A DNA stretch of 19,349 nucleotides, taken from IMG/VR virus record IMGVR_UViG_2576861133_000001; one strand, given 5' to 3'. The notes below the pieces were generated by a model that worked only from the letters and a program-made list of their open reading frames with translations, did not search any database and had not been told where the DNA came from. The translations under genes were made by a program, and so were the position numbers. The DNA is from a virus (lineage: Duplodnaviria > Heunggongvirae > Uroviricota > Caudoviricetes). This document shows positions 1-18,660 of the stretch, one piece after another; within the stretch, counting starts at the first letter, position 1, and each line of letters opens with the position of its first letter.

Positions 1-144
1 CCTCACGAGGCGTGTGTGCCTTACCGCCACCTTTTCCCATACAGCCTTCCCCTGAATAAATTAACCGCCACTTGCCATTCCGTACAGAAGTCGGATATCC
101 TTCGCCCGAAAAGCATGAAACACATTTCTGCCATGCTAAAGAGA

Positions 145-174
145 AACCCCGGTATCAGCAGATACCGGGGTTTT
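145..174. terminator. Rho-independent terminator-like hairpin, possibly bidirectional; may end the minus-strand late operon about 210 nt after gene I
   Basis: Perfect 10-bp stem ccccggtatc (147-156) / gataccgggg (161-170) with a 4-nt loop, followed by tttt (171-174) on plus and flanked by an A/T-rich stretch on the other side. Confidence 0.5.
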
Positions 175-245
175 CTTTCATGCCCACCGATAATCCTGTT
201 GGTTAAAACCGGTAATGGCATAAAAATTCTGAATATCTTCACATT

Positions 246-273
246 TTCACAAACTGACTGTGGCGCGTATAAT
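246..273 (+). promoter_or_regulatory. Sigma70-like promoter candidate (TTCACA, 16-bp spacer, TATAAT)
   Basis: -35-like ttcaca at 246-251 and consensus -10 tataat at 268-273 with a 16-bp spacer; no ORF with a ribosome-binding site follows before the 339-379 terminator. Confidence 0.35.
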
Positions 274-338
274 TTCTCTGCGTTAATTTTTTTGTCGTGA
301 TATAAGAATAATTCCTTACACTTAATCTTCGTAACTCT

Positions 339-379
339 CCCGCAGTTCCTGTCCGCGATCACTGCGGGATTTTTTTATT
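339..379 (+). terminator. Plus-strand rho-independent terminator
   Basis: Stem cccgcagt (339-346) / actgcggg (361-368) followed by atttttttatt; on the minus strand the stem is not followed by a U-run, so it is plus-specific. Confidence 0.5.
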
Positions 380-383
380 CTTT

Positions 384-1316
384 TTACCCCTGCCGCCCGA
401 TAACCACGACCTTTCCGCCCCCGCCTTCATCACGGGTACTGATGTCCTGGGATATACGGCGGGAGCCAACCAGCATTTCCCCGTAAGGCACCGGCATCGG
501 GTTACCCTGGGCAATCATGTTATCCAGGGAGGAAAAGTACGTGTTCTGTTTACCGTTATCCGTGCTTTTGTACTCCGGTGTTTTTGCCTTCGGGGCCAGC
601 ATCTGGGCCACACCGCCCAGTATCATGCTGGCCCCCAGTGAAAACAGCATCGTGGTGGCAGAAAAACCGCCGGCACTCAGGGCTGTACCCCATAACGCCA
701 TCGAGGCACCGGCAGTGAAGAAAGAGCCCACGATGGCTGCCGCCCCCAGCACAATCTGCAGTCCACCCTTTCCGGCCCCGGCCAGTCGCGGCACAATATG
801 GATGACCGTTCCCTCACCCAGCTGTTCGTGAAGACGGGCGTACACCGCCTCCGGTGCCGTGTCATAACCGGCAATACGTATCTGGTACCAGCCTTCGTTC
901 ATCTGACGGCGAAAGCCCGGCACCTGTAACGACAGCGCCCGGATGGCTTCCGCTGCCGTACCGGCAGTGAAGAAAGAGCCCACGATGGCTGCCGCCCCCA
1001 GCACAATCTGCAGTCCACCCTTTCCGGCCCCGGCCAGTCGCGGCACAATATGGATGACCGTTCCCTCACCCAGCTGTTCGTGAAGACGGGCGTACACCGC
1101 CTCCGGTGCCGTGTCATAACCGGCAATACGTATCTGGTACCAGCCTTCGTTCATCTGACGGCGAAAGCCCGGCACCTGTAACGACAGCGCCCGGATGGCT
1201 TCCGCTGCCGTGTTCACATACAGGCTGAGGCGGCGGCCAAATCGTTGTAAATCCCCGTGAAGGCAGATGCGTGCCAGTGGCGGTGACGCCAGACAGAATG
1301 CGTTCGTCGTTGCCAT
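384..1316 (-). CDS. I: Lambda-type tail tip assembly protein I, carrying an internal 84-aa tandem duplication
   Basis: 310-aa ORF with ATG at 1316; recalled lambda gpI-like segments (HGDLQRFGRRLSLYVNTAAEAIRALSLQ, KQNTYFSSLDNM); sits last in the M-L-K-I order; the first 34 codons overlap the K 3' end. Confidence 0.8.
   Translation of the reverse strand: MATTNAFCLASPPLARICLHGDLQRFGRRLSLYVNTAAEAIRALSLQVPGFRRQMNEGWYQIRIAGYDTAPEAVYARLHEQLGEGTVIHIVPRLAGAGKGGLQIVLGAAAIVGSFFTAGTAAEAIRALSLQVPGFRRQMNEGWYQIRIAGYDTAPEAVYARLHEQLGEGTVIHIVPRLAGAGKGGLQIVLGAAAIVGSFFTAGASMALWGTALSAGGFSATTMLFSLGASMILGGVAQMLAPKAKTPEYKSTDNGKQNTYFSSLDNMIAQGNPMPVPYGEMLVGSRRISQDISTRDEGGGGKVVVIGRQG
708..1211. repeat. Perfect direct tandem duplication, 2 x 252 bp, inside gene I
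   Basis: 708-959 is identical to 960-1211 base for base by manual comparison; the protein segment TAAEAIRALSLQ...GSFFTAG occurs twice. Confidence 0.95.
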
Positions 1317-1957
1317 TTTTCGGAATACCTCTCCCGTTTACTCAGTTGTTCAGGCAGATGGTGAAGCAGCTCACCGTTGCCGCAGTAAATGGCGGCATGG
1401 TTCGGTACCGAAGCACCAAAGCAGCACAGCAGAATATCGCCCGCCTGTGCAGAGGACAGGGGCACCCGGTAAAAGCCGGTGACCGCCATATTGTCCAGGT
1501 AAAGGTTCTGACCGTTGCGCCACCAGTCATCCTCGCGATGAAAATCCGGCATTTCAGTCCCCGCCAGATGATAAGCATCCCGGAACAGCGTGTAACAGTC
1601 CGTCACCCCGTGCTCAAAGCGCCGTCCTGTCAGATGTGGCACACAGCGGAATTTGTGAATGTCACCCCGGCAGACCAGCCACCAGGGCAGTGCGCTTTTT
1701 ATCTGCAGCCGCCGGTCAGCCTCGCTCAGCCAGGGCAGCCCACCGGGATGACTGTGGACCAGTGCCACAATCTCCCCCTGCATCTCTGCCCGCAGCCAGT
1801 CTTCCGGTGCGATACGAAAATACGCCTCCGGCTCTGCAGAAATATTCACACAAGGGATATACCACTCCCCCTCCGGCGTGCTTATCACGAAGCCGCACGA
1901 CTCCGCAGGCGCACACCGCCGGGCATGCGCCAGAATCGCTGATTCAGTCTGTGTCAT
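1214..1957 (-). CDS. K: Lambda-type tail assembly protein K (JAMM/MPN-like HSHPGG motif plus NlpC/P60-like Cys/His)
   Basis: Start set at the internal ATG 1957 (MTQTESAILAHARRC...), matching the recalled lambda K N-terminus; the ORF-track upstream extension overlaps L and is rejected; HSHPGG and DCYTL...PNHAAIY motifs are present. Confidence 0.8.
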   Translation of the reverse strand: MTQTESAILAHARRCAPAESCGFVISTPEGEWYIPCVNISAEPEAYFRIAPEDWLRAEMQGEIVALVHSHPGGLPWLSEADRRLQIKSALPWWLVCRGDIHKFRCVPHLTGRRFEHGVTDCYTLFRDAYHLAGTEMPDFHREDDWWRNGQNLYLDNMAVTGFYRVPLSSAQAGDILLCCFGASVPNHAAIYCGNGELLHHLPEQLSKRERYSEKWQRRTHSVWRHRHWHASAFTGIYNDLAAASACM

Positions 1958-1967
1958 AAACCGGGAT

Positions 1968-2918
1968 TTACTGCGAAAGTTTATTAATGGAAAGGAAACC
2001 GCCAAAATTGCCGACATTCCTGCGCAGTTCACACCCGCGCATGCACTTGCTGCATCTGTCCTTACGGATATCCGTGGTGGGGTTGTCGAACTCATCCGCC
2101 ACCGCAGGACCGTTATACCCGCATTCATCTCCCCGGTAATCCCACATACAGGTGTTCGCCAGCATGATGCGACCGGGAAACAGCGCCCCGTCCGTCTCGG
2201 TCGGTGTAGCCAGCACAAACGAGGCCGTCATGGCTGTCAGCTGCGACATCTGCTCCACCACCCAGCGGTCACTCAGCTCCTGCTCCGGGTCCGCCTCCGG
2301 ATTGCCCGCAACGAAATTCACCGCATCCAGAAAACGGGCATACACCCGGCGGCGGACCACCGTGGCCCCCACCAGACTCTGCAGGTCTTCCGCCATCCCG
2401 GTGACCAGACCGAACAGATTGGACACCGTCAGCGACGGTCTGGCACTGCTGCCCAGTGTAGCCAGCACAAACGAGGCCGTCATGGCTGTCAGCTGCGACA
2501 TCTGCTCCACCACCCAGCGGTCACTCAGCTCCTGCTCCGGGTCCGCCTCCGGATTGCCCGCAACGAAATTCACCGCATCCAGAAAACGGGCATACACCCG
2601 GCGGCGGACCACCGTGGCCCCCACCAGACTCTGCAGGTCTTCCGCCATCCCGGTGACCAGACCGAACAGATTGGACACCGTCAGCGACGGTCTGGCACTG
2701 CTGCCCTTCCCGCTCATCTCAAAACCGCTGCCGTCAATCGGGTATGCCTGATATTGCCGCCCCTGCCAGGTGACCGGCTCCCCTTTTTCATTCAGCTCAT
2801 TACAGAAAAAATACCGCTCACCGCCCTGTACCGTCAGGTCGATTTCCCAGAGTACCACCCGCGGTGACTGCTCTGACTTAACCGACTCGTTCAGACTTTC
2901 TTCGCGAATATCCTGCAT
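1968..2918 (-). CDS. L: Lambda-type minor tail protein L, carrying an internal 84-aa tandem duplication
   Basis: 316-aa ORF; N-terminus MQDIREESLNE and C-terminus NVGNFGGFLSINKLSQ match recalled lambda gpL; its ATG (2916-2918) overlaps the M stop as ATGA. Confidence 0.85.
   Translation of the reverse strand: MQDIREESLNESVKSEQSPRVVLWEIDLTVQGGERYFFCNELNEKGEPVTWQGRQYQAYPIDGSGFEMSGKGSSARPSLTVSNLFGLVTGMAEDLQSLVGATVVRRRVYARFLDAVNFVAGNPEADPEQELSDRWVVEQMSQLTAMTASFVLATLGSSARPSLTVSNLFGLVTGMAEDLQSLVGATVVRRRVYARFLDAVNFVAGNPEADPEQELSDRWVVEQMSQLTAMTASFVLATPTETDGALFPGRIMLANTCMWDYRGDECGYNGPAVADEFDNPTTDIRKDRCSKCMRGCELRRNVGNFGGFLSINKLSQ
2204..2707. repeat. Direct tandem duplication with a 252-bp period inside gene L
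   Basis: 2204-2454 is identical to 2456-2706 (251/251), with a single junction base at 2455; the protein segment GSSARPSLTVSNL...ASFVLAT occurs twice. Confidence 0.95.
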
Positions 2919-3259
2919 CAGTTCACCACCTGCTCAATCGTACAACTGAAATCACTGTGCCTGGCGTTATCTGTGACGCTCCACTCCCGGCACACCACCC
3001 TCACCGTCAGGTTATGTTTCGGCGGTCGCCACAAAAAGGCACGGTAACCACCATGCCACGATAAAAATTCATCCAGCCAGCGCCGGGTTGGTTCATCCGT
3101 CACCCGGAACACCGCCTGAAACGTCTTCAGTCTGGCATTAAGTCCCGTCGGTCGGCGCTGTTCATAACCGTCACCAAACCGAACCCTCACCACCGACGGT
3201 TTCTCACTCACCTGCATCCCTTCACGCGGGACCAGATGCAGCGTTTTTATCTCAGCCAC
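2918..3259 (-). CDS. M: Lambda-type minor tail protein M
   Basis: 113 aa with a GTG start at 3259; PSVVRVRFGDGY and C-terminal EQVVN match recalled lambda gpM; the start overlaps the tape-measure stop. Confidence 0.8.
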   Translation of the reverse strand: MAEIKTLHLVPREGMQVSEKPSVVRVRFGDGYEQRRPTGLNARLKTFQAVFRVTDEPTRRWLDEFLSWHGGYRAFLWRPPKHNLTVRVVCREWSVTDNARHSDFSCTIEQVVN

Positions 3260-6200
3260 TCAGCATTCCTCCGTCACGTCGCATGGACAGCATCACCGCC
3301 TGCACCCGCTGGTCAATCAGCTGCACAAGACTGCCTGCCGCCTCCGCCCCTATCTGTCCGTTAGCCCCGTCATTCTGAATGGCGATGTGGTAGACCGGGG
3401 AATACACCAGACCGGCACTGCCGTTCATACTGCCCACCGCGCGTACGCCCAGCGAGCCATCCGCCGCCCGGGTCAGGGGCATAATGGCTTCAGGTCCGGC
3501 TTCCCCCATCAGCCCGGCCCCTTTTGCAAACGCAAAGTACGTGGGCGTGTCCACAATGCTGTTGCTGTACGCACTCAGGTTTGCCGAGGTATACACGCCG
3601 CCTTTTGCATTGGCCACCGCACCGCCCAGCCAGTCACCAATGCTGCCAATAAATCCTCCCGCACCGGACATACCGTTTGCCGCCGTCTTAATTCCGTTGA
3701 CAATCGCAGCATTCATAAGAACTTTTGAGATTTCCTGCAGTACGGATGAGGCCCAGTTGCGCCATTCCACTTTGTTTCCGTTCAGCATCTCCGTGATGTT
3801 ATTCACCATCCCTGAGATACCCTCCGTCGCAAGCTGTGCTGCCTGTGAGGCGTAATCGGATGCATTGTCCACCCAGTTACTGAGCCCCTCCTGCAAGCCT
3901 TTCTGCCAGTCCGCACGCTGCGCATCCGATTCGGCATAAAAGGCTGCCTGGTCCTTAAGGCGTTCGCTCAGATACTGCGCGTTCTGTGCCCGTGCCTGTC
4001 TGTAAAAATCCTCACTGATATCCCCGGTCTGATACTGAGACTGAAGGTCCGCATCCTTCTGGCGGAAGCTGTCACGGATCTGCTGCAACTCCCGCATGCG
4101 TTCCCTGGCTCGTTCTCCCTGCCCGTATCCCAGCAGTTCGGCTTCATTTGATGCACGCGCAGCCACATTATCATTCTTCAGGGTCTCTTCCCGGGATCGC
4201 AACTGTTCCCGGATTTTTTGCTGGTCAATCAGGGCCGCGTTACGCAGCAGTTCCTGCTTCTGCATCTCCGTCAGGGTTTTCAGTTCGCCCTGCGCAGTCT
4301 GGTACTTCAGCTTCGCCAGCTCTGTATTCTGACCCGCCAGTGCCAGTTGCTCTTTCTGCTGCTTCAGTAGCCGGGAAAAACTGTCTTCCGCTTTTTCCGT
4401 CTCTGATTTTCCACCCCGGGATTTAGGTTTGTTCGCCTCGTTATTACGCCAGGCTTCCAGAGCATTACTGATATAACGCTGTCTCGCCTCCTGATACGAA
4501 TCCCCCACAAAACCAAGGTCATCCGCCGCATACCCCAGCCGGGCACGCTCTTTTTCCTCCCCCTTCAGTCGGGACAGGGCCAGCTCACGTTCTGTTTTTG
4601 TCAGGGCGCTCTGCTGTTTATCATCCAGGGTGGCCTGCGGCAGCCGTAACGGTACATTCACCAGTCCCTGACGCTGCTGAAGCAGTTCATTCCCCAGCCC
4701 CAGCAGACGGTTGAATTCCGTATGCTGACCGTTCATAACCAGCATGGACTGGTACACCTTATTCTGCTCTGCCGCCTGCTGACGAATTAACGCCACACGA
4801 CGGTCTTCCAGCCCGGCAAGCACATCCTGAATGGACTGCGCTTTTTCCTGCATCTGTGCCAGACGGGACTGCTCAACGGCAAGCTGCTCTGTTGCCTGAG
4901 AAAGCCCTTCCGTCACGGTCTTCACCGATGTCAGATGGTTTATCATGAATCCGTCACCGGTTGTCCAGCCAGGGTTAGCCAGAACATACTGATATCCAGC
5001 GATTTTTTCCTGCAGGGATTTCACCCGGCTGGCCTGTTCATCAATCAGCCGGTTCTGCTCTGCCAGCGCCGCCCGTGTTCGTCCTTCATTATCTGAGGCT
5101 TCAGGCAAAGACATTGACGGCGTTTTATGCGCGATTTCATCTATCGTCAGTGCATACTGGCGCGCTGACTCCCTGGCCTGCTCCTGATTCTGGTACAGCG
5201 TATACCATGCTGCTGCCCCCAGCATCACCAGTCCGGGTACGCCACCAACCAGTCCCAACGCACCAGTCATCAGACGTGAGCCCACCGCCGTTGTACTGTT
5301 CAGCTCATTCTGGGCTGCGGTTCTGGCAGCAATATTTCTGTTCAGGCGTTCCTGTGTGGCCGCCAGACGGGCTTCTGCAGCAATCTGCATCTCCGTCCCG
5401 CGGGCTGCCGCCACAGCCTGCTGTGCACGGTACACGGCTGCCCTTGCCCGCGCCGTGGCAATCTGCGTCCCCCTGAGCTGTGCTTCCGCCAGTGCCACTT
5501 CATTACGTGCTGCCGTCACAAGTCCTGCCGTGGCAGACACCGCTCCGGAGGCCATATTGCCAAAGTACCGGGCAACCCCGACGGCAACCAGCGCCCCCGC
5601 GGCTGTTGCCACATTATCAATATTACCGGCAACACCGTTCAGCACGCCGGAGAGCGTTTTCGTCGCTCCGCTGGCTTCATTCGCGCCACCCACCCAGGCC
5701 ATAAAGGCGTTTTCCACCTTTGTGATCCCGTCAGAGACCGTTTCCGGCATGGCGGCATATTCATCACGCAATACCCCCAGCTGGCTGATTAACGCAGGAA
5801 CGACTTTATCCGCCGTCAGTTTGCCGTCGTCCGCCATCGCCTTAAGGTCTTTACGGGCCACGCCCATACCCGCAGCCAGTGCACGTACGATCCGGTCTCC
5901 GCTTTCATTGACCGAATTAAATTCCTCACCGCGTAACACACCCTGTGCCAGCGCCTGGCTGAACTGGGTGATCACCGAGCCCGCCTCTGCCGTACTGGCA
6001 CCGGAGATTTTCAGCCCCGTGGAAATGGCCTCCGTCACCTTCAGCACATCATCAGCACTGTAACCATATTCACGCATTGAGGCTGCCGAGCGGGCAAACA
6101 GGGCCGCATTATCTGAAAATGCCGTGCCCGTCCGCTGGCTGATATCCATCAGCACTTTCTGTGATGACGAAAATTCATCGGATGACTGCGACGCCTGTTT

Positions 6201-6494
6201 CAGTCGGGCATTCACGGAACTCCATTCATCGGCCAGAGAAATCAGGTGTCCGGTGGCAAAGGCACCTGCAAATGCCCCCGCCGTTCCGGCAGCTGAAGCG
6301 CGGATTTCCGTCAACTGGCTGTTCAGCTCAGCCAGGGCGCGTCGCTGCACCCGGGCGACTGCGGCAGCCTGACGCCCGCCATTCTGCAGGGTCCGGTAAT
6401 ATTCACTGCCCATGCGGGAAGCCCGCTGGATCTCCGACTGGAATGACTGCGAATTTGCCGAAATTTTGATAATCAGTTCACGTAACGTCGCCAT
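3252..6494 (-). CDS. Tail tape measure protein (lambda H analogue)
   Basis: 1080-aa ORF between the GT chaperone and M; Ala/Gln-rich coiled-coil-like sequence with Gly-rich hydrophobic segments; ATG at 6494 preceded by ggagaaagg. Confidence 0.85.
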   Translation of the reverse strand: MATLRELIIKISANSQSFQSEIQRASRMGSEYYRTLQNGGRQAAAVARVQRRALAELNSQLTEIRASAAGTAGAFAGAFATGHLISLADEWSSVNARLKQASQSSDEFSSSQKVLMDISQRTGTAFSDNAALFARSAASMREYGYSADDVLKVTEAISTGLKISGASTAEAGSVITQFSQALAQGVLRGEEFNSVNESGDRIVRALAAGMGVARKDLKAMADDGKLTADKVVPALISQLGVLRDEYAAMPETVSDGITKVENAFMAWVGGANEASGATKTLSGVLNGVAGNIDNVATAAGALVAVGVARYFGNMASGAVSATAGLVTAARNEVALAEAQLRGTQIATARARAAVYRAQQAVAAARGTEMQIAAEARLAATQERLNRNIAARTAAQNELNSTTAVGSRLMTGALGLVGGVPGLVMLGAAAWYTLYQNQEQARESARQYALTIDEIAHKTPSMSLPEASDNEGRTRAALAEQNRLIDEQASRVKSLQEKIAGYQYVLANPGWTTGDGFMINHLTSVKTVTEGLSQATEQLAVEQSRLAQMQEKAQSIQDVLAGLEDRRVALIRQQAAEQNKVYQSMLVMNGQHTEFNRLLGLGNELLQQRQGLVNVPLRLPQATLDDKQQSALTKTERELALSRLKGEEKERARLGYAADDLGFVGDSYQEARQRYISNALEAWRNNEANKPKSRGGKSETEKAEDSFSRLLKQQKEQLALAGQNTELAKLKYQTAQGELKTLTEMQKQELLRNAALIDQQKIREQLRSREETLKNDNVAARASNEAELLGYGQGERARERMRELQQIRDSFRQKDADLQSQYQTGDISEDFYRQARAQNAQYLSERLKDQAAFYAESDAQRADWQKGLQEGLSNWVDNASDYASQAAQLATEGISGMVNNITEMLNGNKVEWRNWASSVLQEISKVLMNAAIVNGIKTAANGMSGAGGFIGSIGDWLGGAVANAKGGVYTSANLSAYSNSIVDTPTYFAFAKGAGLMGEAGPEAIMPLTRAADGSLGVRAVGSMNGSAGLVYSPVYHIAIQNDGANGQIGAEAAGSLVQLIDQRVQAVMLSMRRDGGMLSG

Positions 6495-6510
6495 TCACCT
6501 TTCTCCGGGC

Positions 6511-6533
6511 GTAAAAAAACCGCCTCAGCGGTT
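6511..6533 (-). terminator. Intra-operon hairpin with U-tract (attenuator-like) between T and the tape-measure gene
   Basis: Minus-strand stem aaccgc/gcggtt (6518-6523 / 6528-6533), 4-nt loop, followed on the minus strand by a run of six T; shares the motif AAAAAAACCGCC-N4-CGGTTC with the element at 14233-14258. Confidence 0.35.
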
Positions 6534-6541
6534 CTCATCAT

Positions 6542-6850
6542 TCATGACTGTGCTGCGAAGCTCAGCGCGTCTTCCAGCGCCGCAAACGGATCCACCTCCG
6601 GCTTATCCTCATCCTCGCCCCAGCAGAGCATGGCGTCCTTCAGTGCAACATTCATCCCCTGTGCCCCAAAAACCGCTTTCACGATCTGTGCATTACGGAT
6701 ATCCCCGCGCTCATCACCCAGCGGGGATACCCTGTCGAACTCCATCCACATCATCGCCTCGCTCACACTCAGGCTGTGCCGCAGTTCGGATAAGGTGCGC
6801 CCCAGACGGAGCGCAAGTCGCATCAGAAAGCGAATTTCCGGGCGGGCTAC
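6542..6850 (-). CDS. T-frame segment of the tail assembly chaperone GT fusion, reached by a -1 frameshift from G
   Basis: The ORF in the -1 frame relative to G is open from the slippery site to the stop at 6542; it encodes LRLGRTLSELR..., which resembles the T domain of lambda-type GT. Confidence 0.6.
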   Translation of the reverse strand, partial: VARPEIRFLMRLALRLGRTLSELRHSLSVSEAMMWMEFDRVSPLGDERGDIRNAQIVKAVFGAQGMNVALKDAMLCWGEDEDKPEVDPFAALEDALSFAAQS

Positions 6851-7221
6851 TTTTTTCTGGCCGACTCTGCATCAGCGATCAGTTCCAGTGCCTGACGCAG
6901 CAACCGGGCATGTACCGGACCATAGACGGCCAGCACCTGCTCACGGTCGTCCGGAGCGAACACCCGCTGCAGATCCGTATCACACAGGACATCGCAGAAC
7001 AGCGTCACATCCGCTTCTAGGTTACGGCGGGTTTTCGCCACCACCGACAGGGTATCGTCATCCTCTCCATCACCATTGAGCACTTCCTGCCACAGATACC
7101 AGGCCTCTGCCGAAGGCTCCCGCAGCACCACGCTGACATTACCCCATTCCGGCACCTTCACCGTTTTATGACGAAACCCTGACAGTCTGGCCAGCGCCAG
7201 CGTTTTCAGATCCTTTTTCAT
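6847..7221 (-). CDS. Tail assembly chaperone G
   Basis: Sits between the major tail and tape-measure genes; ends ...ESARKK immediately after the slippery heptamer; start chosen at ATG 7221 (MKKDLKT), though ATG 7269 is an alternative that would overlap the major tail gene. Confidence 0.65.
   Translation of the reverse strand: MKKDLKTLALARLSGFRHKTVKVPEWGNVSVVLREPSAEAWYLWQEVLNGDGEDDDTLSVVAKTRRNLEADVTLFCDVLCDTDLQRVFAPDDREQVLAVYGPVHARLLRQALELIADAESARKK
6850..6856 (-). promoter_or_regulatory. Programmed -1 ribosomal frameshift slippery heptamer A AAA AAG (G to GT)
   Basis: Minus-strand reading gcc aga aaa aag tag; heptamer A_AAA_AAG lies in the G zero frame two codons before the G stop; the -1 frame continues open into T. 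Confidence 0.6.
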
Positions 7222-7235
7222 GATGACCCATCCCC

Positions 7236-7952
7236 TTATCCGGCGGCTGCGCTCACTGTCACGGTGCATTCAACAGACGTCACACTCTGTGCTTTCTCTG
7301 CCGAATCGGTCACCACGCAGGTATATTTCCCCGCATCAGCGGACTGCGCACCTGGCTTACTGAAGGTGTCTGTCGTCTGCCCGTCAACCGGCTGACCATC
7401 CTTCTTCCAGGCGTATTTATACGGCGGCGTTCCCCCGTTGGCACTGACTGACATTGTCAGCAGCGCACCTGTATTCACGGTAAGTGTTTTATCCAGATTT
7501 TTCACAAACGCCAGCGGTACCACAAAGGACACCGGTTTGCCTTTCATACGCAGTGAAAACGTTGCTGCCACCACGCCGTTGGTACCGGATGACCAGGTGT
7601 GCTGACGCACTTCCGCCAGGAACTTAAAGCCCTTACCGGACGGAAACAGCACCTTAAACGCATACAACGCGTCATTGTCATAGGCATCACGCAGGGCGTT
7701 CTGGGCCTGATTCAGATAAAAATTACCCGACATGGAAATCTCAGACGACGCCCCCAGACCGTTGATGTTCTCCTGCTCGGTGGAGCAGAGCGTGGTCACA
7801 TCAATATCCTGTTTCTGACCAGCGGTGAACTGGACTTCCTTGATGGTGCAGTCCAGGCGCAGATATTCCGCCTTATCCATAGTTTCAGCAGTCGCCGGGG
7901 CAGATGAAATCATCACCTGCGTCAGCTGTGAGCGTTCATACAAAGCAGACAT
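7236..7952 (-). CDS. Major tail protein with a C-terminal Ig-like domain
   Basis: 238 aa; strong AGGAGG ribosome-binding site upstream of ATG 7952; its position before G/GT; C-terminal segment KYAWKKDGQPV...GKYTCVVTD resembles a bacterial Ig-like fold. Confidence 0.8.
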   Translation of the reverse strand: MSALYERSQLTQVMISSAPATAETMDKAEYLRLDCTIKEVQFTAGQKQDIDVTTLCSTEQENINGLGASSEISMSGNFYLNQAQNALRDAYDNDALYAFKVLFPSGKGFKFLAEVRQHTWSSGTNGVVAATFSLRMKGKPVSFVVPLAFVKNLDKTLTVNTGALLTMSVSANGGTPPYKYAWKKDGQPVDGQTTDTFSKPGAQSADAGKYTCVVTDSAEKAQSVTSVECTVTVSAAAG

Positions 7953-7964
7953 TCTGCCTCCTGA

Positions 7965-7989
7965 TAATAAAAAACCCGCACGCGGCGGG
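7965..7989 (-). terminator. Hairpin with U-tract immediately upstream of the major tail gene
   Basis: Stem cccgc (7975-7979) / gcggg (7985-7989) with the A-run 7965-7974 on plus, which reads as a U-run after the stem on the minus strand. Confidence 0.3.
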
Positions 7990-8018
7990 GTATGGGTTTT
8001 GTAGAAAAAAAGAAAAAG

Positions 8019-8363
8019 TCACACCGTGACCTGAAACTCCAGGGTTGCACGGTAACAGCGGTTTTCCGGAATATAGTCCTGCATTTCACTGACGGATCCC
8101 GGGGCCAGCAGCATTATGGCTTCACGGGCGTCCTGACGTATCTGACGCGCCTGCGTCACAGTCCCGGCATAAACGTCTATCTGCACCGACACTGAGGACT
8201 CCGCCTGCCCGCCCATCACGTCCGCAGACACCGATGAAATCAGGCTGAAAACCACCCACGGAAGCGCCACCGACGGCCTGCCATCCAGCAGGGGGACCAC
8301 ATACGGGTACACCTGCCCGCCGGCAAGATGCGCCAGATGAGGATACAAATCCGCCTCCGTCAT
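8019..8363 (-). CDS. Tail completion / tail terminator-like protein (DUF3168-like position)
   Basis: 114-aa ORF; its ATG overlaps the upstream stop as ATGA; assignment is by position between the gp10-like gene and the major tail gene. Confidence 0.55.
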   Translation of the reverse strand: MTEADLYPHLAHLAGGQVYPYVVPLLDGRPSVALPWVVFSLISSVSADVMGGQAESSVSVQIDVYAGTVTQARQIRQDAREAIMLLAPGSVSEMQDYIPENRCYRATLEFQVTV

Positions 8364-8806
8364 CGTCTCAGTACCTCATCAATGGCCCGGTTCATCCGCG
8401 CAATCGCCACCTGAGCTGCCTGTTCACTGCGCACATCAAACGCCGGGCGCACAAACGGGTGCGGTGGCATATTCACGGTCCCCATTTCCACAAACCGCCA
8501 GTAGAAAGCATTGCGCGGGTTATCCGCCTTCATGGTGTTATCGCTGTTACCGGTGTCCGGATTAACACCACGGATATGGACACCGGATTCCATCCCGCCA
8601 TCGCGGGAGCGCCGGGAAAGGACCACCACATTGCGGCGCAGTTTTCCCCTGCGTACCGGTGCCCGTGACACCACTTCTTCTTTCAGCACATTCGCACCCG
8701 CACGGGTTGCCTCACGCAGCACCCGGTTATTTTCCGCACCACTCAGAAGCTGCAAATCGCGGCTGATGTCCTCCAGCCCCGAAAAATCCAGCAGGGTTTC
8801 GATCAT
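8360..8806 (-). CDS. HK97 gp10-family head-tail joining protein
   Basis: 148 aa; translationally coupled at both ends by ATGA overlaps; sequence style and position are typical of the HK97 gp10 family (recollection). Confidence 0.6.
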   Translation of the reverse strand: MIETLLDFSGLEDISRDLQLLSGAENNRVLREATRAGANVLKEEVVSRAPVRRGKLRRNVVVLSRRSRDGGMESGVHIRGVNPDTGNSDNTMKADNPRNAFYWRFVEMGTVNMPPHPFVRPAFDVRSEQAAQVAIARMNRAIDEVLRR

Positions 8807-9153
8807 TTTTCCCCTCCCAGCCGACAGAGAATTTCCAGACGCCCGCCGGTCGCATCCGGCACGGGCAGCCCGACAACGTTCAGGATCCGGTCACGCCATG
8901 GACCACTCAGCACATGAAGTCGTGACGCTGCCGTGATTTCCCGACCGGACTGACCGCGCACCCAGATGCGGATTTCCGCCTGCGCCATTTCCGCACCGGA
9001 CTGCATCCGCTCCCGGCTGCTCCTGCCTCGGATATCCGCATGAATTTTCCCGCATGACACCCATTCTTCCGTCATTTCTCCGGCAGCGTTACGGGTTAAC
9101 ACCGGGTTCAGAACACTTATCATCTGTGTCAGACGACCTGCAGATATTGCCAT
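8803..9153 (-). CDS. Head closure / head-tail adaptor protein
   Basis: 116-aa ORF that is second after the portal in the head-tail joining cluster; stop overlaps the next start. Confidence 0.55.
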   Translation of the reverse strand: MAISAGRLTQMISVLNPVLTRNAAGEMTEEWVSCGKIHADIRGRSSRERMQSGAEMAQAEIRIWVRGQSGREITAASRLHVLSGPWRDRILNVVGLPVPDATGGRLEILCRLGGEK

Positions 9154-9162
9154 TCCCCCTCC

Positions 9163-9489
9163 TCATAACACCGTCGGACAACGCAAATCGTAAATCAGCA
9201 CGGAAACAGAAAACGGCAGCTCCCCCTGAAGCAGTTCTTCCCGCTCCGCAAGATCCGGATTCCGGTACAGCATCCCGGTCAGTCGCATGGCAGCCCCCTT
9301 CATCCGGGTTAATGCCTCGCCCGGGATCAGTTCACCGTCCTCACGGATCACTTTATCCCGGCTGCCCTGAATGTAGGCCAGCAGCACGGCGGTAGCCTGA
9401 CGAACCTTGTCCATCAGCATGTCATCATCCGCGTCATGGTCGACACGCAGATGTGCCTTGATCTCTTCCAGTGTCAGTAATGCCGTCAT
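9163..9489 (-). CDS. gp6-like head-tail connector protein
   Basis: 108 aa; N-terminal motif LTLEEIKAHLRVDHDADDD is typical of gp6-type head-tail connectors; its ATG overlaps the portal stop. Confidence 0.7.
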   Translation of the reverse strand: MTALLTLEEIKAHLRVDHDADDDMLMDKVRQATAVLLAYIQGSRDKVIREDGELIPGEALTRMKGAAMRLTGMLYRNPDLAEREELLQGELPFSVSVLIYDLRCPTVL

Positions 9490-12071
9490 TTTCCGCCTCC
9501 TGCATCCCGCCCACGTTTTGCAGCCAGGGTCCAGGCTGATGAATGAGCTTCTCCGGGTTTATCTTCGGTCATACTGTTGCAGTGCCACAGCGAGCCCCCC
9601 CACGTCACCGTATCGCCGGGGTGGTAGGTTTCACCGGCTCTGAACACACCGCGGTAGAGCATCACCGGCAGGGAAAATGTTTTTTCCGTACGCTGGCCAC
9701 TGCTCTGCCGGACCACCACAGAGAACAACCGCTCACCCGTCATGCTGACGTCAATATCCGCCACCCCGTCAACCAGGCATTCCCATCCCCGCATCCCGTG
9801 CGTTTTTTCATACGCCCGCCAGAGTCCGCCCTGGTGTGTGGCATACGTGCCCCGGGGAAAGGATTTTTGATCGTCAATGGCGGGGAGTATTTCCAGAGCC
9901 GTGGCATCACGCCCGTCCTGCGGAGCCGGCAGGGCACTCACCGCATCCAGAACCGCCTTCTGCAGAACATCCGGATCGTAGTCACGACCATCACGCGGAA
10001 CATGAATATGGCTTACCGCCTCCTTCACCATCTGTTCAAGCATCGGACGCACATCATCCGGGGTGAGACTTTTACCGTCTGCCGGCTGCGGAATATTTGC
10101 GACCGCATCATTCACCGCCTTCTGCAGAACATCGGGATCATAGTCACGACCGTCGCGCGGAACAGGGATATGGCTTACAGCCTCCTTCACCATCTGTTCA
10201 AGCATCGGACGCACATCATCCGGGGTGAGACTTTTACCGTCCGCCGGCTGCGGAATATTTGCGACCGCATCATTCACCGCCTTCTGCAGTACTTCCGGAT
10301 CGTAGTCACGACCATCACGCGGAACAGGGATATGGCTTACAGCCTCCTTCACCATCTGTTCAAGCATCGGACGCACATCATCCGGGGTGAGACTTTTACC
10401 GTCCGCCGGCTGCGGAATATTTGCGACCGCATCATTCACCGCCTGCTGCAGTACATCCGGATCATAATCACGACCATCACGCGGTACCGGAATGGCCCCC
10501 ACAGCGTCATCCACCATCGCCTGCAGAACCGGACGCACCTCATCCACCGTCACATGCTTCTGTAATACCGCCGACAGGGAAGTCAGTTTCTCTTCAAACG
10601 CTTGTGCCTGCGAGGCCATCTTCCCCTCAAATGTGCGCTGTAAATCCGCCAGCACTGTGGAGAATTCTTCTCCCAGTGCACGAATAATGGACAGTTCCCG
10701 TTCCGTCATTTTCTCAGTATCCCCCCTGAACATCGCTTTCACCGCATCATGCTCTGTTTCACTGATTGCCTTATTACCGTCAGATGCGCCGTCAGGCAGC
10801 TGTGATGAAACTGTTTTCCCGGCAGACGCGAACGGATCCTCACGGGCATCACGACGGGACAGCGCCTCCAGACTGTAGTTCTGCTGCTGAAGATACAGTG
10901 CATCACCGCCGGCCAGGGGCGGCAGGTTCTCCCGTTTACGGGCCTCATTGGGCGTGAGAAGCGTATTTTTCACCGCATCCCCCAGCGTTTTCATGCGCCG
11001 CTCACTGTCCATTCTCAGCAGCGTGGTGACATCAAATTCTGTACTCTCGTTTTCCCCCGTTTCCAGCGCCTCATCCAGTAACAGTTCAATGGACTCAATC
11101 AGCGTCTGCAGGCACTGGGAATAATACTGCTGCTCCAGCGCCTCCACGTTGTCACTGGAAGGCGGTTGTCCCACGCCAATCTTGTAGGCCGGGACACGGA
11201 ACACCGAACAGACAATTTCAGCGGTCATCTTCAGTTGTTCCACCGTCTGCGCATCCACAGGTGAAAACGTCGTGGGGTTGTATTTTGCCCCGTTGCTCAG
11301 AATGGCCGTTTTCCCCGCATTTTCGCCTGTATACCCGCTGTCCCAGTTGCTCTTCAGTTTTTTCGCATTTTCTTCCGTAATACTGCCGGGGATCTCAATC
11401 ACCCCGGACGGCCTGCCGCCATTTCTGAAAAAAGACGTCGAATTTTCCTGAATATGATGCCCCTGCGTGGCCGCCAGCCCGGCGGCATACACCGGCGGCA
11501 ATCCTATAAGCGGATGAAAAAAACAGTTAAACCGGTCGTGGATCACTTCCCGGGCAGGCACCGTCACCGCCTCCGTGATCCCGCAGTTCCGGTCCGGCGT
11601 GATGCGGTAGAACACCTCGCCGTCATCCGCCACCAGAGGTTCAACCCGGCTCCAGTCCAGAATACGCAGTTCTTTGATCTGCCCCCGGGCATTACGGATT
11701 TTCAGCACCACCGTATTGCCATGACGCAGTTTGGCGTTCAGCCACAGTTCAAAAAACTGGATGCGGTTCTGCTGGGCGTTGGGACGACGACAGAGGCGGG
11801 CAATATCCCCCCGGCGCGTTTCCCTGCGTATCCCATGCGCATCCGTCTGCATAAGACGCAGCCGCATTTTGGCGATATCCTGGGATATCAGCGAAATACA
11901 TGCAAACACCGCATGAAAGGAGAGGACGGCTTCAGGATCGGCTTTCACGCCCTGCTGCCAGGCGCCGGAAAAGGGCTCAGCCACCGCCTGAAACAGGCTG
12001 GTCCAGCCCGCCTCTCTTACGTCACGTCCTGATTTCTGGTTTTTTCGGGTTCGCCGTAAAAGGTTCCACAT
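9486..12071 (-). CDS. HK97-family portal protein with a roughly 350-aa C-terminal extension (tandem 54-aa repeats plus a terminal aromatic-rich domain)
   Basis: The N-terminal roughly 450 aa align by eye to HK97 portal (FRNGGRPSG...KTAILSNGAKY...FRVPAYKIG against recalled FGNGSRPSG...KTAVL...FGVPPHLVG); the C-terminal part is an uninterrupted extension of the same ORF. Confidence 0.8.
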   Translation of the reverse strand: MWNLLRRTRKNQKSGRDVREAGWTSLFQAVAEPFSGAWQQGVKADPEAVLSFHAVFACISLISQDIAKMRLRLMQTDAHGIRRETRRGDIARLCRRPNAQQNRIQFFELWLNAKLRHGNTVVLKIRNARGQIKELRILDWSRVEPLVADDGEVFYRITPDRNCGITEAVTVPAREVIHDRFNCFFHPLIGLPPVYAAGLAATQGHHIQENSTSFFRNGGRPSGVIEIPGSITEENAKKLKSNWDSGYTGENAGKTAILSNGAKYNPTTFSPVDAQTVEQLKMTAEIVCSVFRVPAYKIGVGQPPSSDNVEALEQQYYSQCLQTLIESIELLLDEALETGENESTEFDVTTLLRMDSERRMKTLGDAVKNTLLTPNEARKRENLPPLAGGDALYLQQQNYSLEALSRRDAREDPFASAGKTVSSQLPDGASDGNKAISETEHDAVKAMFRGDTEKMTERELSIIRALGEEFSTVLADLQRTFEGKMASQAQAFEEKLTSLSAVLQKHVTVDEVRPVLQAMVDDAVGAIPVPRDGRDYDPDVLQQAVNDAVANIPQPADGKSLTPDDVRPMLEQMVKEAVSHIPVPRDGRDYDPEVLQKAVNDAVANIPQPADGKSLTPDDVRPMLEQMVKEAVSHIPVPRDGRDYDPDVLQKAVNDAVANIPQPADGKSLTPDDVRPMLEQMVKEAVSHIHVPRDGRDYDPDVLQKAVLDAVSALPAPQDGRDATALEILPAIDDQKSFPRGTYATHQGGLWRAYEKTHGMRGWECLVDGVADIDVSMTGERLFSVVVRQSSGQRTEKTFSLPVMLYRGVFRAGETYHPGDTVTWGGSLWHCNSMTEDKPGEAHSSAWTLAAKRGRDAGGGK
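9869..10546. repeat. About 4.2 tandem copies of a 162-bp (54-aa) near-identical coding repeat inside the portal gene
   Basis: Period-162 registration at 9961, 10123, 10285 and 10447; the three central copies differ by only a few substitutions; protein unit DDVRPMLEQMVKEAVSHIPVPRDGRDYDPDVLQKAVNDAVANIPQPADGKSLTP. Confidence 0.85.
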
Positions 12072-12238
12072 TCGCCATGCTCCGCATCACGTTTCTTTTT
12101 CTGACCTGCCGGACGTCGCACCGTGATGTACTCCGCCTTTCCCAGGCGAACCAGCACCTCCGCACACGGCTGTGCCACATCACGGATATCCCCGGCCCGG
12201 GCATCATGCGTGCCCTGCAGATATCGGATCTTTGCCAT
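12017..12238 (-). CDS. Hypothetical 73-aa basic protein in the capsid-portal intergenic gap (doubtful)
   Basis: ATG-initiated ORF in the ORF track; weak ribosome-binding site; overlaps the first 18 portal codons out of frame. Confidence 0.2.
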   Translation of the reverse strand: MAKIRYLQGTHDARAGDIRDVAQPCAEVLVRLGKAEYITVRRPAGQKKKRDAEHGECGTFYGEPEKTRNQDVT

Positions 12239-12282
12239 AACCTGTTACGGGAGGCGCACGCCTCCCGTCCTCCTTATCAGAC

Positions 12283-14220
12283 TCAGCCGCCGGACGCACT
12301 GCCGTAGTTCACTCCGGTGATCACCGCCACCGCCGCAGTACGGCGACGACGCCAGTTGATCCAGCGCTCCGCACGGATGGCCACGCTGCCTGTCTGGAAC
12401 ATGGAAACCAGCTCCACCGGGGACGGCGTGGTACTGTCGCCGGTCGGCTCAGACTGCATTTCCAGTGATGCCTCGCGGGACATATCCACTGCCACGCCGC
12501 CGTCATCCGCCAGATAAATATCCGGGGCATTCACCAGCACCAGCTGGTCACCCACGTACTGGGAGACAATCACCGGCAGCCCCTGGAAGGAGCCACCCAG
12601 CAGGGTCATGTCCGGGTATTCCTTCTGACCCAGCGCATTTTTACGCATGGACAGTGCCAGGGCATTGGTGCTGGACATCAGCCAGACCGCACCGGTGGGC
12701 TGCAGGTTTGCTGCCACAAACTGTCCAAACGCAGCCTCTGCATCCGCATCCGGGTTACCGGTTGATGCCGTGCCCTTCACATCATGGGTGATGGACGCCG
12801 GGGAGACATCTGCCACTGCGGCTTTTTTCGGGTCCACAAAGTCTGTATCCAGACGCGCCACCACCGCTTCCGCCAGCGCATTACGGACCAGTGCATCAGC
12901 AGCCGGACTGGAAAAACGGATCAATTCTTCCGTCAGTACCGCAATGGCCGACACCTTCGCATGACTGAAGGTGATGGATTCAAAATCAAACTTCGTCAGG
13001 GGTTTTGCCTTACCCTCACCCACCCAGCCGGCAGCACCGCCGGACACCTGGGCGTGCACACGGATATTGAATGGCACCTGACGAAGTGCAGGGATCCCGC
13101 CCTGACCAAATCGCCCGATAATGGTCTGCGGACGCAGGTAATCAATAAAGTCCTGTGCGTATTCCTGATATTCAGACAGGCTGCCTGCCCACTGCGGATC
13201 CGTGGTGGTCCCCGCGCCCACTGCCGATTTCAGGACATGATGCAGACGACTGTCATCCGGATACTGACGACGGGCCACTTCCAGGGCTTCAGATCGGACG
13301 CCTTTAGCCGCAGCCAGCGATTTGGCAAAGCGGGCGAAGCCAATCCCCTTATCCAGTTTCTGCTCCACACGGATCACCGGCGCAGAAGCCACCGCGGCCA
13401 CATTCCCGTTACCGGCCTGTTTCACCGGCTGCGCCGTGGCGGCCTTACCGGCTTCCAGTTCACGCAGGCGCTTCAGGTGCGCATCCACCTGACGGATTTC
13501 CGCTGCGGTGTTGTCGTAATGCTCTTCCTCCTCCACATCCAGCGTGCGCCCTTCCTCTGCGGCTTTGGTCATGACCTCCTCAAGGGAGGCTGCCAGCGCT
13601 GCACGCTTGTTTTCAAAACTTTTAATCTGTTCGCCAATATTCATTATGGTCTTTTCCTTATGAAAAACGGTTGTTGACTGTGCCGCAGCGCCGGCAGAAG
13701 ATGCGATTTTCACCACCGGTTTCCGGTTGCCGGACGCGGCAGAAAACGGGCGGTCGTAAGATTTAATGGTCCGGATGGTGCATTCCGCATTCGCGGGCAC
13801 GGTGACGGCAGACACCTCCATCAGTTCCCAGCGCAGAAAATGCAGTCCGCCTCCGTCCAGAAAGGTGTATTCATGGGGACGGAAGCCCACGGACAGCCCC
13901 CTGACCAGCCCGGTCTTAATGGCCGCCCAGACCTCATCCAGCCGGGCAGCCAGTTGCGACGGCATATCCGGTACGGGCTTCACCAGTGTTGCCGTGATTT
14001 CCAGCCCTTCGCTGACCCGGCGCACCGTACACTGCCCCACCGGGCGGGAATGGTCATGCTGCCAGAGAAACGGGATCGCACTGCCAAACTCCGCGCCCTC
14101 CGGCTCCAGGATGTCACCATCCCGATCCGGAGAAGGCGTTGACGCAATCCCGGTGATCACCCGTTCATCCTCACTGAAGGATTTCACCGTCAGCAGGGAA
14201 CAGGCCCGTTTAAGAGTCAC
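12283..14220 (-). CDS. Fused HK97-family prohead serine protease (S78-like) and major capsid protein
   Basis: 645 aa; N-terminal protease-like motifs (GIASTP...LWQHD...GLSVGF...EVSAVTVPAN), a central coiled-coil delta-like segment, and a C-terminal HK97-fold capsid-like region; GTG start at 14220 preceded by AGGAGG. Confidence 0.8.
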   Translation of the reverse strand: MTLKRACSLLTVKSFSEDERVITGIASTPSPDRDGDILEPEGAEFGSAIPFLWQHDHSRPVGQCTVRRVSEGLEITATLVKPVPDMPSQLAARLDEVWAAIKTGLVRGLSVGFRPHEYTFLDGGGLHFLRWELMEVSAVTVPANAECTIRTIKSYDRPFSAASGNRKPVVKIASSAGAAAQSTTVFHKEKTIMNIGEQIKSFENKRAALAASLEEVMTKAAEEGRTLDVEEEEHYDNTAAEIRQVDAHLKRLRELEAGKAATAQPVKQAGNGNVAAVASAPVIRVEQKLDKGIGFARFAKSLAAAKGVRSEALEVARRQYPDDSRLHHVLKSAVGAGTTTDPQWAGSLSEYQEYAQDFIDYLRPQTIIGRFGQGGIPALRQVPFNIRVHAQVSGGAAGWVGEGKAKPLTKFDFESITFSHAKVSAIAVLTEELIRFSSPAADALVRNALAEAVVARLDTDFVDPKKAAVADVSPASITHDVKGTASTGNPDADAEAAFGQFVAANLQPTGAVWLMSSTNALALSMRKNALGQKEYPDMTLLGGSFQGLPVIVSQYVGDQLVLVNAPDIYLADDGGVAVDMSREASLEMQSEPTGDSTTPSPVELVSMFQTGSVAIRAERWINWRRRRTAAVAVITGVNYGSASGG

Positions 14221-14232
14221 ATCAGCCTCCTG

Positions 14233-14258
14233 AAAATAAAAAAACCGCCGGAGCGGTT
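14233..14258 (-). terminator. Intra-operon hairpin with U-tract between the terminase large subunit gene and the capsid gene
   Basis: Stem aaccgc (14243-14248) / gcggtt (14253-14258), loop cgga, followed on the minus strand by tttttatttt; same sequence family as the hairpin at 6511-6533. Confidence 0.4.
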
Positions 14259-14283
14259 CGTGATGGTTACAGTGTGAACAGGG

Positions 14284-15945
14284 TTATATGAAAAAAACCG
14301 CATATTCTTTCTTTTTCGGTTCCGGGTTAAGGGACATCAGGGAGACCGCATTGAACAGCGCCATCAGCGGGTCAATTTTTCCCCGTCCACTGGCCTGTTT
14401 GGTGATAAGAATGGCGTTACCTTTAGGCTCCACCCGGGCATTGCCGACACACCAGGCCATCAGGGGCTGGTCACCATGCACCAGCACCCCTTCAGCCAGT
14501 TTGCGCTCGGTGGTTTTAATGGCCCCGCCCAGTTTCCAGCCCTGGCTTATCCCCACCACAATTCCGTCGGGGATCCCGGCTTCCGCCAGTGAATCCAGAA
14601 TCTGCCCCACCCCTGACGGGTCAATACCGATATGGTCCAGTAACTCAGCCTCATGAATGCGACGCACATATTCCGCCACTTCCGCCGTGTCATCCCCGAC
14701 ACGCCGGACAATGGTCATATCTCCACAGGCAACAAGATCCTGAAACCGGGACGCCTCGCTCTTCCGTCGGACCACCGCGGTTTCATGCGCCCAGGCATGG
14801 CCCCAGCCCAGCCATTCGCGGGTCTCCCGGTCACGCCCAATCACATACATCCCCAGCAGATCATCCAGCCCTCCGCCGTCAATCCCCACCGTCACCACAT
14901 CAGCACGACGCAGGATATCGTCCAGGCTGATACAACGGCCCTGCTCTTCCCAGAAATCAGCCCCCGCCCAGCGGTCAGAGCGCAGGGCAAGACCAATTTC
15001 CACATTGGCGTGTTTTGACATGAACCCCCGGAATGTCTCTTCACCGGCTTCCCGGGCTTTACGGTACTCCCGGTACAGAAAGGCCTCATCCACTGAATAG
15101 CCGAGATTCGGATTGACCATGGCGAGGTTTTCCATCAGCAGGTTAGTCCCGCTTTCCACCATTTCAGGAGGGTGTTCAAATATCACCGGCAGAAAGTGCG
15201 GATCATGAATTTTGCCGTCGCGCACATCCCGGGCGTACTGCAGTTTCTGTCTGAACACCCCGGCGGGCGGTTCATTCGACTGGGTGGTCGTATACACCAC
15301 AAACCCTTCCGGGCGGGAGGCAAGGCCGCCTATGGCTTCACGTAACATGTCCTCCGCCTTGCACTGCTTGCCAAACAGCCACAACTCATCAATCAGCGTA
15401 CCCACGGACTTGATACCGGACACCGTATTCGGATCGGCTGCCACCACCTTCAGGGTGGTGTCCGTCACTCGGTGGGTGATGGTCCGGATATGGGTCTGTA
15501 CCTGGCAGAGGTCATCCAGATCATCGTCACGTCGTACCATATCCCGGGCAGGGTTGAAGGCGTTGGCCGCCACCTCCACAGTCGGGGCCAGAATCGTGTA
15601 ACCCGCCGCCTGCCGCCAGTTCAGTAACAGTGCAGTCATCATGATCCCCGCGGCCAGCGTGGACTTCGAGTTTTTCTTGGGGATAAGGATAAAAACTTCC
15701 TTGATATGGCGTACACCGGTCTGCGCATCGTAGGAGCCAAACAGGGCCGCCACCAGGTCAAACACCCACGGTGCACAGGACTCCCCGAACGTAGGGCTAC
15801 CAGGTGCATCCACAATCCGCAGTTGTTTAAAAATCGCCAGGGCATGTGCGGCCTCGTCCGGATAAATCGGATCCGGAATAATCGACAGCCCCTTTTTCAG
15901 GCGCTCTGCCCAGTCCGGGCAGGCTGTGCTCCATACAGGTATCAT
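14284..15945 (-). CDS. Terminase large subunit
   Basis: 553 aa; Walker-A-like LIPKKNSKST; C-terminal nuclease-like region; ATG overlaps the small-subunit stop as ATGA. Confidence 0.85.
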   Translation of the reverse strand: MIPVWSTACPDWAERLKKGLSIIPDPIYPDEAAHALAIFKQLRIVDAPGSPTFGESCAPWVFDLVAALFGSYDAQTGVRHIKEVFILIPKKNSKSTLAAGIMMTALLLNWRQAAGYTILAPTVEVAANAFNPARDMVRRDDDLDDLCQVQTHIRTITHRVTDTTLKVVAADPNTVSGIKSVGTLIDELWLFGKQCKAEDMLREAIGGLASRPEGFVVYTTTQSNEPPAGVFRQKLQYARDVRDGKIHDPHFLPVIFEHPPEMVESGTNLLMENLAMVNPNLGYSVDEAFLYREYRKAREAGEETFRGFMSKHANVEIGLALRSDRWAGADFWEEQGRCISLDDILRRADVVTVGIDGGGLDDLLGMYVIGRDRETREWLGWGHAWAHETAVVRRKSEASRFQDLVACGDMTIVRRVGDDTAEVAEYVRRIHEAELLDHIGIDPSGVGQILDSLAEAGIPDGIVVGISQGWKLGGAIKTTERKLAEGVLVHGDQPLMAWCVGNARVEPKGNAILITKQASGRGKIDPLMALFNAVSLMSLNPEPKKKEYAVFFI

Positions 15946-16505: not shown

Positions 16506-16579
16506 AGCCTCCTCCCGGGTCCAGAACGCACTCAGCCGGGTATGGTTCAGCCCATTTTTCCCGGCGTCTCATGCCGCAA

Positions 16580-16702: not shown

Positions 16703-16795
16703 GCCCTGAAACGGGAATTTTTTCTCTGCGTGAGAGGGGGCGCGGTGTCCAAAGCGATCGTTTTTTACGCCGGATGATACCCCCCCCGGGTTGGG

Positions 16796-17161: not shown

Positions 17162-17202
17162 GTAAAATCCCCGTCATATGGCAATCAGTAAAGGAAATAA
17201 AT

Positions 17203-18658: not shown

Positions 18659-18660
18659 AG

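Follow-up and report, generated by a model that had tools for sequence, protein, structure and literature searches.

Does a perfect in-frame tandem repeat in a tail gene record a recent event in the life of a prophage, or was it made when the sequence was assembled? The question is raised by tail assembly gene I in IMG/VR virus record IMGVR_UViG_2576861133_000001, a stretch of 19,349 nucleotides that was analysed as a whole and is hereafter called the window. A sequence-only reading of the window had reported a perfect 252-bp tandem duplication inside gene I (here D1), and the base-for-base identity of the two copies (252/252) was reproduced by repeat search, by TRF and by direct comparison. 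The identity run at period 252 is exactly 252 long and ends in mismatches on both sides (C vs T on the left, A vs G on the right), and direct comparison revealed no microhomology on either side of the D1 junction. A perfect repeat of 252 nt cannot have arisen by chance. Translation of the ORF also agreed with the lengthened gene I product that had been described (Table 1), in which the 84-aa segment TAAEAIRAL...FFTAG occupies residues 36-119 and again residues 120-203. As well, that reading had mentioned two identical antisense mini-ORFs generated by the repeat (677..874 and 899..1126), which proved to be a misdescription: both lie on gene I's own minus strand in another frame, and they have only their first 56 residues in common, being 65 and 75 aa long.

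The assignment to lambda tail assembly gene I was upheld, since PF06805 and PDB 8IYK chain I agree on it. The ORF matches the Pfam profile with E = 3.4e-28 and chain I (223 aa) with E = 1.4e-103 in two stretches, and it possesses both the N-terminal Lambda_tail_I domain and the conserved C-terminal plug region that characterize the lambda tail I family. Its 310 aa lie outside the range of 193-260 aa for intact members of the PF06805 family, a departure that we ascribe to the probable artefact described below. Gene K, which was identified from the RefSeq annotation of the identical backbone and from Pfam PF14464 and PF00877 in frame, lies between genes I and L, and the remainder of the lambdoid morphogenesis operon, including gene M and the tape measure gene, lies downstream. 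The gene L ORF carries the full-length Phage_tail_L profile (PF05100, E = 1.1e-126) with four Fe-S cysteines in the C-terminal domain, and the match to PF05100 is split into two stretches because of an insert, D2, which is described below. It also matches 8IYK chain L (232 aa) with E = 6.6e-155, again in two stretches and with the Fe-S cysteines aligned.

In phage lambda, gpL is a trimeric hub with a C-terminal Fe-S domain at residues 154-232, the roles of its Cys173, 182, 205 and 212 have been described, and residues 135-223 of gpI form a plug in the lumen of the tip (PMC10721106). Compared with lambda gpI and gpL (PDB 8IYK, 8IYL, 8K35, 8XCG, 9E7M; PMC10721106), the single-copy forms of the window proteins are full-length homologues, with 226 aa for I and 232 aa for L against 223 and 232 aa in lambda, and all four gpL Fe-S cysteines are kept. 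The additional 84 aa in I correspond to residues 36-119, which make up most of the N-terminal PF06805 domain and lie outside the virion-resolved residues 135-223, while those in L correspond to residues 72-155, in the hub domain just before the Fe-S domain.

A comparison with homologues, which the sequence-only reading had proposed as a check, showed that a single copy is typical of both families and that the two-copy form is not the norm. Among 5.8 billion protein clusters, homologues of I are 193-226 aa long, varying with the called start codon, and those of L are 232 aa long, and no natural family member with a duplicated I or L architecture was found. The idea that two copies of the segment might be the family norm was rejected, because the longer proteins, which are few, proved to be either fusions or perfect duplications of other lengths from draft assemblies, each unique or nearly so. 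In the protein clusters, I and L proteins with perfect internal duplications of other lengths are few and nearly all singletons; the over-long proteins derived from drafts include I proteins of 290 aa and L proteins of 284-307 aa.

D1 has a twin. A second tandem duplication of period 252 (D2), which the earlier reading had missed, was detected inside the gpL homologue by repeat search and TRF. Direct comparison resolved D2 into a 251-nt exact run and one junction base, A, and the sole difference between the two 84-residue copies in the gene L product is their last residue (L vs P). A relationship in sequence between D1 and D2 was rejected, as their best local alignment scores 18. That two events of the same period should have happened independently is very unlikely.

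Table 1. Coordinates of the duplicated units, junction bases, putative graph edges and tail genes in the window (L001, locus on NZ_CM190145.1 of E. coli strain 21437; P1 and P2, paralogous prophages; de-duplicated, after removal of both 252-bp insertions).
Feature	Position	Strand	Size	Remarks
D1 copy 1	708..959			Variant base 708 plus last 251 nt of edge A (709-959); identical to 960-1211
D1 copy 2	960..1211			Junction base plus first 251 nt of edge B
Putative 1-base filler A	960			Basis: anatomy of D2 (251 + A) and analogues L002 and L005 (c, t or n)
D2 copy 1	2204..2454			Last 251 nt of edge B; ends at L001 19819, final base of the 4,108-bp exact repeat of strain 21437
Filler base A	2455			Differs from both flanks (native G at 2203, T at 2707); makes a Leu codon (CTG)
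D2 copy 2	2456..2706			First 251 nt of edge C; P2 diverges at the next base, window 2707 = L001 19820
Putative edge A	1..959			Allele-specific, with P2-type variants at 252-708; flanked by 251 shared nt on either side
Putative edge B	961..2454		1,494 nt	Common to P1 and P2 (de-duplicated 709-2202, L001 18326-19819)
Putative edge C	2456..19349			P1-specific segment (tail, head, lysis region), flanked by 251 shared nt at both ends
Gene I homologue (tail tip assembly / plug)	384..1316	-	310 aa with D1, 226 aa single-copy	PF06805
Gene K homologue (JAB/MPN + NlpC/P60 peptidase)	1214..1957	-		All inside edge B, unaffected
Gene L homologue (tail tip hub)	1968..2918	-	316 aa with D2, 232 aa single-copy	PF05100

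Neither repeat was encountered elsewhere. After removal of both 252-bp insertions, the window is identical in BLAST to NZ_CM190145.1 (E. coli strain 21437, Germany; L001) over 18,845 of 18,845 bases, and this record has one copy at the D1 site and one at the D2 site. A 2,917-bp query covering I, K, L and M matches 4,342 of the 5,426 complete E. coli genomes, and its best matches all span 2,413 bp, that is, the query minus 504; the same result was obtained in the phage collection, so the matches carry single copies. Only one record, NZ_CM190145.1, matches this query at 100%. Queries of 60 nt centred on the D1 or the D2 junction, run at a strict E-value such that only a contiguous match counts, had no match in the 5,426 complete E. 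coli genomes, exact 40-mers over either junction are absent from IMG/VR, JGI metagenome contigs and GTDB species genomes, and neither the 310-aa nor the 316-aa protein has a record among 153 billion gene positions. No relative carrying D1 or D2 was found among the E. coli genomes, the phage collection and the protein clusters.

The genuine in-frame duplication of gene I that the sequence-only reading implied is not supported by these results: the otherwise identical record of 18,845 bases has a single copy, the junction and the long protein are unrecorded in the collections searched, gene L holds a twin of equal period, and the boundaries, as shown below, lie at a fixed offset of 251 nt from paralogue divergence. 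Junction microhomology or independent sizes, together with inheritance by relatives, would be expected of genuine duplications and were not observed. It could nevertheless be argued that two independent 252-bp events of illegitimate recombination or slippage took place recently in a decaying prophage and were tolerated as the prophage is defective. Both repeats are present in the sequence as given and both are in frame, their copies are identical or one base apart, as for very recent events, and selection on the tail genes may be relaxed, gene J being annotated as frameshifted and IS elements lying in the tail fibre region. Against this stand the identical period found twice, the lack of microhomology at D1, the filler base in D2, and the absence of both repeats from the identical backbone of strain 21437 and from every collection searched, so that we consider genuine tandem duplications improbable. 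Slightly less probable again is that both 84-residue duplications are real and co-occur, giving a gpI whose N-terminal ubiquitin-like domain is partly doubled and a gpL in which a half-domain is doubled; if so, they would hint at a mechanism making fixed-length (252-nt) duplications at the edges of homology blocks between prophages.

The positions of the repeats were found to follow a second locus. Two lambdoid prophages that are paralogous to each other reside in ST131-type genomes, P1 at ompW and P2 at yecD; the P1 examples are L009 and L012 (AR_0086), and the P2 examples are L010 (THO-003) and L011 and L013 (strain 21437). The de-duplicated window differs from P1 at 64 positions, 62 of which fall in 252-708, and the last of these clustered differences, 708, coincides with the base at which the D1 unit begins; beyond it, only two SNPs relative to P1 occur in the remaining 18 kb (de-duplicated 1624 and 1938). 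The backbone agrees with P2 without a difference for kilobases to the left and, to the right, through L001 19819; divergence starts at the first base past D2. Strain 21437 contains the P2 paralogue as well, and the resulting exact intragenomic repeat of 4,108 bp ends on the last base of the D2 unit.

When the clusters of P1/P2 variants are extended by 251 nt in both directions, they predict an allele-specific edge of 1..959 exactly, with 252-251 = 1 being the start of the window and 708+251 = 959 the end of the first D1 copy, and the same clustering predicts that the right-hand edge starts at de-duplicated 1952, which is window 2456. When set directly against the lysis region of P2 in strain 21437, the right end of the window, L001 36462, proved to lie inside a 369-nt exact run shared by P1 and P2 in the lysozyme gene; the last P1/P2 difference before this run is L001 36211, and 36211+251 = 36462. 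Six coordinates (1, 959, 961, 2454, 2456 and 19349) are reproduced to the base by one parameter (251) and two alleles. Random placement of the duplications was rejected, because randomly placed duplications would not fall on five paralogue-defined coordinates to the base. For genuine duplications this is a further difficulty, as D1, D2 and both window ends lie 251 nt from divergence at another locus, to which local mutation is blind: a local biological duplication is not expected to respect divergence points that belong to a locus half a megabase away, and the window ends respect them too.

The fixed 251-nt relation to P1/P2 divergence is most likely the mark of unmerged assembly-graph overlaps. 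From the anatomy of the repeats and from sequence comparison, we put the probability that D1 and D2 are an assembly artefact, and not a real feature of the prophage, at roughly 0.93. In a de Bruijn graph, adjacent edges share exactly k bases. The whole window would be a complete scaffold of three de Bruijn-type graph edges with k = 251, in the order A + a + B + a + C, where each lower-case a stands for a single base (Table 1). Scaffolding or gap closing would have set the edges end to end with a 1-base gap, without collapsing the 251-base overlaps, and the 1-base gaps would later have been written as A; that they were originally N is a guess. Each overlap would then occur twice in the window because the 251-base overlaps were left unmerged, and genes I and L would stay open, with an apparent duplication of 84 residues, because 251+1 = 252 is divisible by three. 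D1 would have an exact run of 252 rather than 251 because its putative filler, A at 960, is the same as the native base found at 708. For a k, 251 is unusually large; it coincides with the read length that 500-cycle MiSeq runs usually give (2x251).

The proposed edges were compared with the available prophages. Edge B is 100% identical in the second prophage of many ST131 genomes and in strain 21437 (L011), and P1 differs from it only at the two SNPs named above, de-duplicated 1624 and 1938. The branch points at 252 and 708 would need a P1-type left allele in the read set. In strain 21437, a P1-type allele at 252-708 was not located, and the two located copies (of three matching places) are P2-type; for this reason this part of the model relies on an ordinary ST131-like source, for example THO-003 or AR_0086, in which P1 and P2 are both intact. 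Edges A and B match P2 of THO-003 without a difference, as edge C does P1 of AR_0086; exactly these three edges would result from an ordinary ST131-like genome in which both prophages are intact, and the window therefore need not derive from strain 21437. The scaffold may consequently be chimeric, with P2-derived A and B joined to P1-derived C via a two-copy repeat.

Strain 21437 is itself a hybrid at this locus. Its ompW prophage (L001 15712-19819, equivalent to the backbone up to de-duplicated 2202) is P1-type with a contiguous patch of P2 alleles: in de-duplicated coordinates, the P1 alleles seen at -2086 and -1906 give way to P2 alleles at 69 sites (-912 to 1938), and from 2203 the alleles are P1 again. 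Over window 384-3300, this P1/P2 hybrid is matched at 100% in just one of the 5,426 genomes, that of strain 21437. It owes its patch either to gene conversion, with the yecD prophage at a distance of 0.5 Mb as donor, or to a chimeric assembly that was inherited. A chimeric query for the reciprocal hybrid (P1-left / shared / P2-right) found none in strain 21437, so a simple reciprocal exchange does not explain the backbone. In addition, P1- and P2-type I-K-L segments occupy swapped positions (about 2.25 and 2.80 Mb) in S13 compared with THO-003, which suggests an inversion of about 0.55 Mb via recombination between both prophages.

These observations bear on another explanation, in which the duplications are a by-product of P1/P2 recombination or gene conversion, through exchange in a misaligned register where the shared 1.5-kb segment ends. 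The P1 backbone with its contiguous P2-allele patch, whose right edge falls within the D2 unit, would fit such an origin, and the positions exchanged between S13 and THO-003 indicate that the prophages do recombine. However, homologous exchange in register makes no duplication, while unequal exchange needs internal repeats 252 nt apart, and the repeat search found none. Moreover, strain 21437 has the same patch without the duplications, and the 251-nt offset holds at both window ends, where recombination plays no part. We regard this origin as highly improbable, and the unmerged overlaps of an assembly graph remain the preferred reading.

Similar repeats were identified in public draft contigs, namely BDKX01000007.1, BDKB01000084.1, BDKD01000007.1 and BDID01000049.1, which, like the window, hold several perfect duplications per contig, in the lambda-like tail genes V, K, I, L and J. 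In BDKX01000007.1 (L002), three tail genes each carry a perfect tandem duplication, always with period 300, and BDKD01000007.1 (L007) has two duplications, with period 300. BDKB01000084.1 (L005) has two of period 300, where one junction base is a literal n (position 2261). BDID01000049.1 (L003) has four within 6 kb, with periods of 177, 164, 128 and 47, some of which are out of frame and break gene J. The likeness to the window lies in a period that stays constant within an assembly (300 in L002, L005 and L007) and in junction anatomy, while the period itself is 300 or variable in the drafts and 252 in the window. In these drafts the exact run is typically one base shorter than the period and is accompanied by a single odd base at the junction; at the I-gene junction shared by L002 and L005 this base is c in one assembly and t in the other. 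The odd junction base appears to be the remnant of overlapping contig ends that were abutted with a minimal 1-base gap and filled arbitrarily. D2 (251 + A) has exactly this anatomy, and D1 fits it if its filler A equals the native A at 708. Over-long I, K, L and V proteins (e.g. P0029, P0031, P0098 and P0135) have been deposited in NCBI/nr, and some of them are in UniRef.

The error could also have entered after assembly, through the concatenation of overlapping fragments, tiling, or polishing or local reassembly in which pieces of read length were inserted at sites where paralogue reads were soft-clipped. Boundaries that lie one 251-nt MiSeq read length from paralogue divergence would agree with this, and reads anchored on the variant base would fit as well; but both window ends obey the 251-nt rule, which graph edges or contigs fit better than local polishing, and this variant appears the least probable of the explanations considered. 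Its verdict is the same as that of the main explanation: the duplications are not a real feature.

Gaps and incorrect gap filling between duplicated pairs have been described as hallmarks of false duplications, with read depth as the main diagnostic (Ko et al. 2022, PMC9516828). The duplications of the window resemble those cases in that identical copies are adjacent, a gap or filler lies between them, better assemblies lack them and false gene content is created. In the window, the boundaries coincide with branch points and the length is constant, with both overlaps being 251 nt; an unsupported filler separates the copies of D2 (A at 2455), and D1 is compatible with a filler equal to the native base. 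Independent, near-identical assemblies lack both repeats, as seen in strain 21437, in all ST131-type relatives and in four collections. Unlike the cases in PMC9516828, which are mostly large heterotype (haplotype) duplications in vertebrates, the filler here is one base and the overlap equals k, the organism is a haploid bacterium, a two-prophage repeat is the trigger, and the judgement was made from sequence alone.

Tandem repetition of a different kind is present in the portal gene. The portal protein (861 aa, ORF 9486..12071, minus strand) has PF04860 at residues 54-382 followed by a long C-terminal extension, in which an array at 9952-10545 comprises 3.3 in-frame copies of a 54-aa unit with 88-95% DNA identity. 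Like D1 and D2, this array is an in-frame tandem repetition in a virion gene, but its copies are diverged and it is unrelated to paralogue boundaries, whereas D1 and D2 are perfect, unique to the window and tied to such boundaries. Every relative has the array, strain 21437 and the ST131 prophages among them, and it is considered a natural repeat for that reason. An ORF of 645 aa (12283-14220, minus strand) combines a prohead protease domain (PF04586, residues 48-152) and a major capsid domain (PF05065, residues 386-635) in one frame; its position between the large terminase and portal genes is an unusual gene order.

At the other end, the window holds the first 40 nt of gene J (L001 14185-17657), the rest of which lies just to its left; J is annotated as frameshifted at the same length of 3,473 nt in P1, in P2 and in several strains (L009, L012, L010, L011). 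The stop of gene I and the start of J are separated by a spacer at window 41-383, a 343-nt non-coding insert, compared with only about 60 nt between I and J in a lambda-like contig. The part running from this spacer into the 3' end of gene I, with its 62 differences in 252-708, is the most divergent between P1 and P2. On the plus strand, opposite to the tail operon, the spacer contains at 246-377 a near-consensus predicted sigma-70 promoter (TTCACA-16-TATAAT, 11/12), about 80 nt upstream of a GC hairpin and U-run terminator, and the two predicted elements would give an antisense transcript of roughly 95 nt. The predicted fold has z = -2.15. Rfam, searched with the whole window and with the I-J spacer, returned no family at the gathering threshold and only weak hits at chance level.

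The stitching error matters for quality control, as it places over-long tail proteins in public protein databases, and it can fake a domain duplication whenever overlap plus gap is a multiple of three. This class of error can be screened for by several perfect tandem duplications of one period per contig, exact runs one base shorter than that period, and boundaries at the points where paralogues diverge. Because the scaffold may be a chimera of two prophages, gene linkage within it is not to be trusted. As for the prophage itself, its I and L are ordinary single-copy lambda-type tail-tip genes, and the apparent duplications carry no biological weight.
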